This document shows positions 41,684 to 59,257 of a stretch of DNA of 64,000 bases, piece by piece. Each line of letters opens with the position of its first letter. The stretch's first letter is position 1. The notes beneath the pieces were generated by a model. It worked only from the letters and a program-made list of their open reading frames with translations. It ran no database searches and was not told where the DNA came from. The stretch is taken from positions 62,496,001-62,560,000 of the forward strand of contig OZ024742.1 of NCBI GenBank assembly GCA_964016885.1, given 5' to 3'. The translations under genes and the position numbers were made by a program. Origin of the DNA: Eledone cirrhosa. Lineage: Eukaryota.

Positions 41684-41886
41684 CGGTGGATTGGCAGTAT
41701 CGGTAGAGGGTCGGACGCCATGCTTTCCAGCATAGTTACGTCCCTTTACGATCTGAGTTCAAATCCCGCCGAGGTTGACTTTGCCTTTCATCCTTACGGG
41801 GTCGATAAAATAAAGTACCAGTAATGCACTGGGTAATTTGCTGGCCTTGTGCCTAAAGTAGAAACAATTATTATTATTATTATTAT
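41684..41886 (+). mobile_element. tRNA-derived SINE with (ATT)n tail; absent from the homologous site in gene A (13605)
   Basis: Gene A reads CTTCATCTAC|CTGGGG; gene B reads CTTCATCTAC|GGTGGATTGGCAG. Confidence 0.88.
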
Positions 41887-44800
41887 AGTTGCATTTATCT
41901 TGCTTTGTGTTCATACGAGTTATCACCAAGTCACAACCAGTGACCTCAAGAGACAACAAGGTCCGCCATGTTCAAGAAAGAACATACACACACATGCATC
42001 TTTAGGTGTTTAAACTTGTGATGTACTTATATGGACAGAATCTTCCTTAATATATGGGAAGTTCCCATTAGTACTATCTTTTGTATTTCTCCTATACGCG
42101 GCTTCCTGGGATTTGCGATAAGTAATCATTAGGCCCCTTAGGTATCATTCCTAGAGCGCCTACAACCACTGGTATTGTTTTAGTTCTCAATTTCCACATT
42201 TTTCCAATTTCTATCTCCAGGTCCTTATACTTGCTCAATTTTTCAAATGTTTTTATAGATACATTCTTGTCTATTGGAACGGACATATCAATTAGCAGGC
42301 ATACCCTCTTTTGAAAGTCCTTCAATATTATATCAGGTCTATTTGCATCTATTTTTCGGTCTGTTTGGATGCTAAAGTTCCACAAGATTGAGATGTGATC
42401 TTTTTCAAGTATGGGAGGTGGTTGATACTTCCACCAATTCTTTTGATGGGACAGGTGAAAATGCTTACACATTATCCAATGTATGTATTGTGCATCTCTG
42501 TCATGCCTGCTTAGGTATTCGGTTGGAGCTATGGGGCTGCACATTGAAATTATATGATTAATGGTCTCTGGTTGTTTTTTACATACACGGCATAATGGGT
42601 TGCATCCATTTTTTATTATGTTGGCTTGGTCATTTTTTTGTTGGCAGACACTGATCTTGTGCTGATATAATCTGTCTTTCAGTCTCCAATTTCAGTCCAG
42701 AGGATGCCAACCACTGATGGGTTAAAGTTTTGTCAACATCAGGATTGTTAGCTCTTTCTGGATATTTTCCATACAGAGGCTTTTCTTGCCATTTCTTAGC
42801 CAGTTTCTGTAGCAGTTCTTTCTTTGCAGTTGCTTTTACCTGCTTTGCTTTTTCTGTGTTTTCCATTTCAGCAGTAAATGGGACTTCTGAAATTTGTAGT
42901 CCGTTACTGTATCTTTGCGCATCTTTTGTAATGGAGTATGATCTTTTGATGCTTTCGTGTTTCAAAACGAGTTTGATCATCCAATCATGTGATTCCCTTA
43001 GATATGTAGATAATCCAATTGTTGCAGTTTTCAACGCAATATCTAACTGGATTAACCCACGTCCTCCTTCTTTCCTAGGGAGATATATTCTATCAGTATC
43101 TGCCTTAGGGTGATGCATTCTGTGCATGATTAAGAATTTTCTCTGTACTTGACCAGTTGATGACACTGTAACTGTAGGTTATTACTGGTATGGCAAGCGT
43201 GTTTATGGCATCGATCCTATTCCTTGCATTCAATTCCGTTCTTAAGATTGCTCTGACTCTTCGGTAACATTCCTTCCTTATCCTTTCCCTCATTGTCGAG
43301 TGCTTGATTCCGTCTCCTTCACAAACACCTAGATATTTGTAAGTTTTTTCTTGATCAAGTTCTCTTATCACATTCCCCCAATCAAGATTAATGTCTGAAC
43401 TTTTCTGCAACTTTCTTCTGGTGAACGTTGCTTTGGCGCATTTATCTAGTCCCAACTCCAATTTAATGTCATCACTGAACTGCTCCACAGTGGATAATAG
43501 CCCTTGCAATTGTTCATCATTTTTGCAAATAGTTTCAGGTCATCCATGTAGAAAAAGGGATTAACTATTCAAAAGGAGTGTCGTTTTCCATGTCTTCATA
43601 CTGAATGACAGGAACCTCCTGACAATGGGAAATATTTTGAAAATCTCTAAACATTTTTCAATCCAACTGTGTGGCAAGCTATCGAATGCTTTTTTATAAT
43701 CTATCCAAGCAATTGATAGATTTTTGTGTCTATTATGACAATCTTCCAGTATCATTTTGTTAACCAAAAGTTGATGCTTACAGCCTCGTTTACACCCTTT
43801 CTGCTCAATGGGAAATAGATCATTTGTTATCAGGTGGTCATATGTATATTCAGTTAGGTCTGATGTTAAAATTGTATACATTGTGGTCAAGCAAGTTATC
43901 GCTCTGTAATTCTTCGGAAGCAGGAATGTAATGCCGTTAACTAGCCATGATCGTATCTTTTCTGGCTCCTTAACTATTTCATTGTAAAGTTGGGCTAACA
44001 GCTCATGAGACTCTGTGAAGGCATTTATCCAAAAATTTGGTATTTTGTCTTTTCCTAGGGATTTCCATTTGCTGGTTTTTCTAAGAGCCAAACGCAACTG
44101 TTCAACCGTTATATTTTCCCATATTTGTTCCTCAAGGTGAACTGTATCTTTCATTTGTCTGTCTATCCATGGGGCATGTATATTATGAACTTTTTCTTCG
44201 GCCCAGATCTTTTACCAGAATTCTTGCACTTCCTCCTTGGGTGGTATTGATTTAGCAGTTATTGTTGACTTGCCAATTTTTCTGTAGAAGTTTCTTTGGT
44301 TGTTTTTGAACATATTGTCCTTATAGAATCTAGATCGTTTTTCAAAACGCCTTATACGAGCAGCTTTGGCCGACACTTTTTTCTTTATTATTTCTATCAG
44401 CATGTCTATGTCACTTGTTGATTTTATACTGTATTTTCTTTTCAATTTTCTAAGTTTAGTTTGTTTAACATGTTCACCTACTTTATAGTTTGTTAAAATT
44501 TCTATGTCAGATCGGAGAAGGTTTATTTGGCGATTGATGTTCTCTTGCCAAGTAGATTTCTTGTGGGAATTCCTTTGTTTTTTCATTTTCACTCCACATA
44601 TGTGAGTGGTGCCTTTAGCCGATGCATAATAGAGATGATTTAAATCAGTAATGTTTAGTTTGTTTGTGATGATAATGTTTTTGAGAATTATGTTAGTGTT
44701 GTGTATTATCTTTTGGTTCTGTTTGGAGTTCTGGATCTTAGGGAGAGTGTCTCGTTCCCCCATGTCAGATTCTTTCATTTTCATCCATTCGATCATAATT

Positions 44801-57700: not shown

Positions 57701-59257
57701 AATTCCTGATCTGTGTGATTGACTTGAAGCTAAACGCGTCATTAACAGCGCGCAAGGCCTACAGAGACCTGATTAGCAAACTAGTTAAGCGGGCGTTGAC
57801 GGGGGCCGTCGTCAACAACAAGTGGTGGTTTGCTCTGAAAAGAGCGATTAGAATAGAGGTCATTAGGTTTAGTAAGGCTTTAGCAATAGAGAAAAATAGA
57901 GCAGAGAGAGAACTAGTTAAAAAATTAGACCAGGCGCTTAGCAAAGGCATCGCGACCGACGTACTTGCGGCGAAATTGGCCCTTGACCAATTCTTCAATG
58001 CAAAGCACGAAGGCTGCGTTGTCAGAGCTAGGGTGCGTGCTCTCAGACATGAGGGAATGAAAGCCGTTCAATGTGCCCGAGTGGCGGAGGCGCGTCGTGG
58101 CAACAAAGCAACGATCCGGTCTTTGGTGGACCACGACGGGTGCATGCTACCCAATCCCGGGCATATGTGTGAAGCTTTTCAGAAGACACTTCGCTGTTCG
58201 GGGGAAGCGGCGGGCCGGATCGAGGGATGGACTTTAGTGTCTACCTCGATGGACTGCCGCAGCTCTCGGCCACTGAGGCGGAGTGTTACGAAAAGCCGAT
58301 ATCAGCAGCTCAAGTACGGGAGGCAATGACTGGCTGCACAAGGGGTAAATCGCCTGGTTTGGATGGTCTGGCCTATGAATTTTACGTACAGATTCCAGAC
58401 TTGTTCCGAGGCCTCTTGGCGGACGTCTACTGCAACTGGCAACAGAACGGGAGAATTCCCAGCTCTGTGAGCCGAGAAGCGGTGGCACTGCTGAGAAAGG
58501 ATCCGAACAAGGAGGATAACATAGATAATTTCAGGCCCATAACTCTGCTAAACACAGAGTTCAAGATTTTGGCCAAGGTGCTAGCAAAGAGGTTGGCGCT
58601 TGTCGTTGATGGTCTGGTGGGAGAGGCGCAGACGTGCGCCATATCCGACCGATCCATCCACGACAACCTCCACCTCATGCGATACATCGTGGCGTGGGTA
58701 GCAAGGGAACTTGGCACGGGTGGGTCCCTGATCAATTTAGATCAGTCGAGAGCTTTCGATAGGGTCGACCACCGTTATCTGGCGGAAGTCCTGAGGGCGG
58801 GTGGCTTTGGGCTCGTCTTCAGAGGCTAGATCGCTGCCATGCACAGCGACATCTGCTCTGTGGTGAGAGTGAACGGTCATATTTCGGAACCGTTCAACAT
58901 CATGCGCTCGGTCCGCCAAGGTTGTACCCTCTCGTCCCTCTTGTACGTATTGACTCCCGAGCCATTACTGCAGAAACTGGAGACGTTGAGGGGGCTCCCG
59001 CGCGAACTAGGGTGCGGGAGATCCGTGTCAGCATATGCGGACGATGTCACCGTAGTGGTGTCGAACGCCAAACACATCGACGCGATCGGCACTATACTAA
59101 GAGAATACGAAGCGGTGACAGGAGCAATGATCAACCAGGAAAAGTCGGTGGGCCTGCAGCTCGGCACCTGGAGAAGCAGGTCCATGCCGTCCAACAGTGT
59201 CGTCGACCGCTGGACGGACAGACCGGTTAAATTGCTAGCGGTCCATCTGCTGTCAAC
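54777..59257 (+). mobile_element. Tx1/L1-like LINE copy 2 (ORF1, APE, RT; 3' end deleted)
   Basis: Same 5' terminus; ORF1 55697..56995 with CCHC; APE SINARG, SETR, VYAP, GDWN, YLDR, TDH; RT SPGLDG, RPITLLN, AYADD. Confidence 0.92.

Follow-up and report, generated by a model that had tools for sequence, protein, structure and literature searches.

We analysed a 64-kb window of Eledone cirrhosa DNA, on contig 3 of a 3.0-Gb genome, in which retroelements are stacked between positions 41684 and 59257. The stack comprises copies of two families (A and B) of long interspersed nuclear elements (LINEs) that resemble Dong/R4 and carry a restriction-like endonuclease (RLE), copies of a Tx1-like LINE family that carries an apurinic/apyrimidinic endonuclease (APE), and a short interspersed nuclear element (SINE) at the left end. 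Two unrelated kinds of retrotransposon almost certainly share the target (ATT)n throughout this genome, with opposite polarity. The locus is probably one of many stacks in which the two RLE families and the APE family meet at the same (ATT)n in opposite orientations, the Tx1-like lineage likely mobilising the SINE as well.

To collect copies of the Tx1-like family, we took the 40 best matches to its 5' end and fetched 30 loci. The 5' end directly follows (ATT)n in all 30, and the 3' ends mostly run into ATT repeats, with a clear exception at one locus (L035). An exact 14-mer of the 5' end has 2,584 occurrences in the genome (control, 1), of which 2,304 (89%) are preceded by a perfect 13-nt (ATT)n in a single phase; for 12 such bases in the same phase, the background probability is 9e-5, as estimated from 400 kb sampled at even spacing across the genome. 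The genome-wide targeting of (ATT)n by an APE family proposed in an initial annotation of the window is thus borne out, and the flanks of most copies, whose randomness that annotation had named as evidence against itself, are non-random. An element without target specificity could produce a similar pattern if its RNA carried (ATT)n at both ends and wrote the tracts itself. A long tract on just one side at L098, L037 and L056 indicates that tail slippage or upstream read-through does add some repeat. Copies truncated at the 5' end, which lack the RNA 5' end, speak for a target: the eight that are truncated into outside sequence start at (ATT)n in five cases, and at a degenerate ATT-rich run, (TTTA)n and (TA)n in one case each. 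Since such copies start at the tract too, we read it as target and not as part of the element. We consider tract writing by the element very improbable, also in view of the clustering with the RLE families described below, which is far above chance and always of matching tract polarity. Some young copies fit this picture less well, having little tract on one side (L098, L035) or another repeat at a truncated 5' end (L037, L056), and the length of a target-site duplication (TSD) is unreadable within pure repeats.

For the RLE families, we counted 3'-end motifs across the genome, obtaining 4,187 for A and 11,148 for B. Among the first 25 copies of each by position, 24 of A and all 25 of B end at (TTA)n, with none on the opposite strand, and many A 5' ends or truncation points are also preceded by (TAA)n. 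Within the first 44.86 Mb of contig 1, 34 of the 48 Tx1-like 5' ends lie no more than 10 kb from an end of A or B (local-shift null: mean 4.3, maximum 11 in 2,000). Tract polarity agrees in 34 of 34 clustered pairs, so that the Tx1-like and A/B elements are transcribed in opposite directions, as had been suggested from the single locus. The same mixed stacks were found in twenty 10-kb loci, in line with the earlier proposal that stacks grow by repeated insertion at tracts flanking earlier copies. At L091 (7377-7421), L102 (8520-9941) and L104 (4170-7152), TTA tracts switch to TAA and the elements beyond are inverted.

We also considered that the stack might be an assembly concatenation at microsatellites. 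Our read check covered the left (host-SINE) junction alone; there, short-read contigs from one sample, maybe the assembled one, are exact across 83 nt of host and 24 nt of SINE. The copies differ in age and subfamily, each has its own truncation point, the 5' junction of the first B copy is unique in the genome and similar stacks occur on many contigs, all of which leaves concatenation with next to no probability.

The Tx1-like family encodes an open reading frame (ORF) 2 with an N-terminal APE, a reverse transcriptase (RT) and a C-terminal zinc-binding motif, zf-RVT (Pfam PF03372, PF00078 and PF13966), and its APE has eight solved-structure matches, all to chains of the L1 endonuclease or ORF2. 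A separate ORF1 contains a CCHC knuckle (CX2CX4HX4C), read directly in the translations, and gave no Pfam match above the cut-off. The closest named relative of ORF2 is a protein of Argonauta hians (63% over the C-terminal 275 aa); between Tx1-like families, the C-terminal regions of ORF2 are ~62% identical. A quick tree, in which rows L260 and L267 are frameshifted and long, placed the ATT family, an older family, a TATC family and the Argonauta protein in one clade (SH-like approximate likelihood ratio test, 99). No named Tx1, Kibi, Koshi or Dong element was among the relatives returned by homologue searches and cluster look-ups. The plus-strand family is thus likely Tx1-like, within the L1 group, by domain layout and target specificity and not by a tree with named Tx1 elements.

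A and B each encode a single ORF with RT, CCHC and a PD..D nuclease motif and are 41% identical to each other; all five solved-structure matches of A are R2-type proteins. They are likely Dong/R4-like, judging by their layout (C-terminal PD-(D/E)xK, no APE) and (TAA)n target and not by comparison with a named reference. An Rfam search at six A 5' loci gave no match to a hepatitis delta virus-like ribozyme, although divergent ribozymes could escape it. Of the convergence that had been proposed, the shared target stands; its independent origin we infer from the unrelated folds of the APE and RLE nucleases (PMC4640811; this and the articles cited below were available to us in part) and not from a tree with named references.

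Under the mechanism that we propose, a stack would be built by successive target-primed insertions. Judging by junction phase, the RLE would first nick the TTA strand after ATT and prime there, and the APE would first nick the TAA strand after AAT and prime there, although terminal microhomology could blur this phase. The same TpA step would thus be nicked on opposite strands, resulting in opposite polarity. Each insertion would leave the repeat on both sides through a duplication of ~12-20 nt and slippage, so that targets multiply and stacks grow. The Tx1-like ORF2 may bind a hairpin with a CUUGU loop 16 nt before the AUU tail, a hairpin that the SINE also has, and pairing of the tail with the nicked strand could explain why poly(A) is missing. 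Later deletions would then have trimmed both edges of the stack.

The initial annotation had further assigned to SINE tails a role as landing pads. Taking copies by position, we found that the left neighbour was the tail of the stack's SINE for 4 of 25 A, 2 of 25 B and 1 of 30 Tx1-like copies, and was far more often another stack member. In a set of 26 random tracts of at least 12 nt, four were tails of the same SINE and ~6 belonged to two other short repeats; the majority of SINE tails are not long enough to count as tracts. SINE tails thus make up 7 of 80 neighbours, or 7 of ~40 if stack members are left out, and 4 of 26 random tracts. On these small numbers, they show no enrichment and are used in rough proportion to their share of tracts. 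They do serve as pads, but not as a special route. Two further short repeat families with TTA/ATT tails (L109, L111 and L142; L114, L128, L167 and L168) are also used as pads.

To characterise the SINE itself, we sampled 40 evenly spaced 10-kb stretches (400 kb) and obtained 47 matches of at least 100 bp. The last 24 nt of three SINE copies are identical at 13-17 of 24 positions to the tails of the young and the first older Tx1-like families, at 11-15 to three other Tx1 tails and at 3-8 to A/B ends. Among 744 random 24-mers preceding ATTATT, 24 reach 14/24 identity to the young tail, and 23 of those are SINE tails. SINE and Tx1-like tails have a CTTGT loop on a short stem (GGC/GCC in the SINE, ACC/GGT in the young and GCC/GGC in the older family). 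Loop and tail are 16 nt apart in 70 of 74 SINE and 52 of 55 Tx1-class tails, counts that measure spacing and not frequency since the search pattern demanded the loop. Across six chosen sequences, both members are altered in three of the four stem pairs, and slid controls gave lower scores. Of 12 full-length SINEs taken at random, nine have TSDs of 12-20 nt (mean for mismatched pairs as control, 0.9), and the 3' flank begins with ATTAT in nine. The older Tx1-like family (L252-L271) has short ATT tails and, at L261 and L262, ATTAT-initial TSDs in non-repeat DNA; SINE sequence lies closely downstream of its 3' end at 8 of 20 loci. In the 1.33 Mb fetched, 144 close tail matches were found, 134 of them with a SINE body upstream and the other 10 being SINE stubs or Tx1-like tails, and no other family had a closer tail there. 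Given the shared 24-nt 3' end, the small and apparently covarying hairpin, equally far from the tail in both, and the ATTAT-initial TSDs, we conclude that the Tx1-like lineage probably mobilises this SINE.

Several observations count against this conclusion. The covariation comes from six hand-picked sequences, and the outer pair fails in four of them. The hairpin has just 3-4 bp, and the minimum-energy fold shows it in three of five Tx1 and one of three SINE tails. None of the 12 random SINEs follows a pure tract of at least 12 nt, which makes the strict young family a less than obvious driver and calls for an older, laxer relative; a TSD of at least 10 nt was found in just three of nine older-family copies with a mapped boundary. 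The 1.33 Mb fetched represents 0.04% of the genome and is biased towards stacks, so that a less common LINE whose tail is closer may have escaped notice. Real (ATT)n targeting would also be compatible with another partner for the SINE, of RTE, CR1, L2 or Nimb type, the likeness of the tails then being due to chance, convergence or old capture from a dead relative. No more than 13-17 of 24 nt are indeed alike, the SINE often adopts another fold, L1-clade SINE tails are rare (3 among 58 pairs; PMC3747384) with examples from plants and a green alga, and Octopus vulgaris has active RTE and CR1 families, according to the portions of the literature at hand. We nevertheless find such a partner unlikely, as the match is anchored at the terminus, the 16-nt spacing is kept, the stem pairs are apparently compensated, the ATTAT-initial TSDs are alike and the fetched sequence holds no closer tail.

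From the random sample, we also identified a sister Tx1-like family (L141, 7546-7920; L176-L200) with a similar 3' hairpin. Among 25 fetched copies, 23 run straight into TATCT at the 3' end; of the other two, one continues into TTATCT and the other into (TA)n. (TATC)n also precedes most of the truncation points. At L193, a 26-nt stub of this family lies between 15-nt duplications. A third target, (TAG)n, considered at L123, was rejected, the L123 family ending mostly in short ATT runs. We lean slightly towards a wider reading in which an octopod Tx1-like lineage has its RNA recognised by the 3' hairpin and not by poly(A), drives a SINE of hundreds of thousands of copies, and has had its APE re-tuned from loose ATTAT to strict (ATT)n and (TATC)n. 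This would make it a stringent SINE-LINE pair of the L1 group in an animal, and would close a three-way loop in which the SINE, the APE LINE and the RLE LINEs create and exploit one another's targets, on opposite strands.

Tx1 families that insert in microsatellites are known, namely Kibi and Koshi in fish and crocodilian ones, with the targets (TC)n, (TTC)n and (TTCC)n/(TTTC)n (Kojima 2015, PMC4494074). The present family is likewise an APE-RT LINE of the L1/Tx1 group in a microsatellite, but here the target is (ATT)n, or (TATC)n in the sister family, the host is an invertebrate and the target is shared with RLE elements. Dong of Bombyx mori, DongAg and DongBg target (TAA)n, their sense strand reading TAA (PMC3812793, PMC3774820), and Dong is placed in the R4 lineage by PMC3774820. 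A and B resemble Dong in having (TAA)n on the sense strand and differ in that there are two co-existing families, whose target is also that of an APE element. Dong is given as APE-type in PMC3812793, whereas A and B carry the RLE motif. Crocodilian SINEU elements were likely moved by the target-preferring Tx1-Mar, with a target preference weaker than that of the LINE (PMC4494074). They have small nuclear RNA heads and poly(A) tails, and the authors of PMC4494074 found no LINE with the 3' end of SINEU-1, whereas the tRNA-type SINE described here shares the putative 3' hairpin and ATT tail of the LINE. Stringent L1-clade pairs have been described in maize/sorghum and in Chlamydomonas (Ohshima 2012, PMC3472496; 2013, PMC3747384), and L2 elements of eel and zebrafish rely on stem-loop recognition (PMC4176376). 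As in these pairs, LINE and SINE here share a candidate 3' stem-loop that is short, keeps its loop and varies in its stem, apparently with compensation; the present case differs in involving an animal L1/Tx1-group element, in lacking poly(A) and in having a stem of just 3-4 bp, whose function is predicted from sequence.

Dong-R4 and L1-Tx1 elements have been annotated in Octopus and are recently active (PMC13282606, PMC8967140, PMC9115989). The accessible parts of these three texts gave us no account of their targets, stacking or a SINE partner, and the octopus SINE partner is unnamed in those of PMC4824008, PMC4758252, PMC5786205 and PMC4176376. In the literature searched, we found no report of a Tx1 element targeting (ATT)n or (TATC)n or of such a SINE pair, for which a prior description in Repbase, Dfam or the target list in Fig. 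3 of PMC4494074 is possible. The shared target offers a natural comparison of two unrelated nucleases with opposite polarity, and the closely related APE domains with different microsatellite targets offer another, so that what determines the choice of target can be put to the test. Should the link to the SINE be correct, this octopod SINE, which is very abundant, would have a likely driver, and Ohshima's count of three SINEs with L1-clade tails would gain an example from animals. In such genomes, insertions concentrate at (ATT)n tracts and build stacks of at least 10 kb, which matters for assembly, repeat annotation and microsatellite markers.

Table 1. Elements and repeat tracts of the stack, and its paralogous segment, in window coordinates.
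Feature	Position	Strand	Remarks
SINE, tRNA-type	41684..41866	+	A-/B-box-like motifs by sequence reading; first 3-4 nt and TSD missing; 3' end resembles Tx1-like 3' end
Tract 1, (ATT)6	41867..41884	+	SINE tail
Family A copy 1 (A1), Dong/R4-like RLE LINE	41885..45878	-	Decayed; truncated within the 5' untranslated region
Tract 2	45880..45895	+	
Family B copy 1 (B1), 3' stub	45896..46356	-	5' junction unique in genome
Tract 3	46357..46398	+	
Family A copy 2 (A2), 5'-truncated	46398..48706	-	721-aa open frame: RT, CCHC, PD..D nuclease motif
Chimeric 5' extension of A2	48707..48964	-	62-bp B piece and 198-bp A piece
Tract 4, (TTA)11 then TTG-interrupted units	48962..49008	+	Pure part 48962-48994
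Family B copy 2 (B2), 5'-truncated	49009..51127	-	681-aa open frame: RT, CCHC, PD..D motif
Tract 5, (ATT)17	51128..51178	+	
Tx1-like copy 1	51179..54758	+	5' and 3' ends intact; ~2.3 kb missing internally (end of ORF1 and APE); 3' hairpin ACC-CTTGT-GGT; AATAAA
Tract 6, (ATT)6	54759..54776	+	
Tx1-like copy 2	54777..59257	+	ORF1 with CCHC knuckle, APE, RT; 3' end cut by deletion junction
Paralogous segment without stack	12817..14729	+	94% identical; ~311 bp (13606-13916) absent from stack locus

The arrangement of the stack (Table 1) largely agrees with the initial annotation. The six (TTA)n tracts lie between the elements where it had placed them, and no other (TTA)-strand tract in the window exceeds 9 nt. 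The two A copies share one common terminus, as do the two B copies, and the strands assigned earlier to the RLE elements (minus) and to the Tx1-like copies (plus) were confirmed. Both Tx1-like copies begin with GGCGACCTACGTAG directly after TT, and copy 1 ends with AATAAAGAAAGC followed directly by ATTATT, poly(A) being absent, again as described. Its internal deletion corresponds to positions 1510-3785 of a full-length copy, and copy 2 ends near position 4446 of that copy, with no tract at that end. Relatives of A1 contain ~700 nt more at the 5' end. The main elements had been listed correctly, but the 62-bp B and 198-bp A pieces between A2 and tract 4 had been overlooked. These mixed pieces at the 5' end of A2 are likely template jumps; as the B piece is identical to the adjoining B1 at 62 of 62 positions and to B2 at 59 of 62, a local template is possible. 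A donor copy of the stack elsewhere in the genome, also considered, is unsupported, the B1 junction being unique.

Both outer edges of the stack are deletion junctions, since the paralogous segment holds ~311 bp that are absent at the stack and the SINE lacks its first bases and TSD. For the same reasons, the claim that the stack begins in the tail of a SINE missing from the paralogue holds for the absence of the SINE, but the segment is not the clean empty site that had been supposed. A second SINE copy in the window (17838-18027) has a clean ~14-nt duplication beginning with ATTAT. Tx1-like copies often keep both ends and have large internal deletions, as seen at 52694 and at L087, L089, L092 and L104. 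Rfam gave nothing credible across the stack, and ARAGORN found no tRNA.

The placement of the paralogous segment in an intron, as given in the initial annotation, found no support: the single long frame checked near the stack (336 aa; 37872-38879, minus strand) had no Pfam match and no second copy in the window, host exons not having been searched for. By eye, this frame resembles a decayed LINE endonuclease. Elsewhere in the window, further elements were noted. A third, older Tx1-like fragment (18384-20654, minus strand) is truncated at both ends and has no tracts, and a third RLE-type family, with ~64% DNA identity to A, occupies 71-1545. Inverted duplications were found at 3893-10267, between 2707-3803 and 62912-64000, and at 15670-16212; they include a Penelope-like pair (RT and a weak GIY-YIG match) and a near-perfect palindrome at ~15720-16120.

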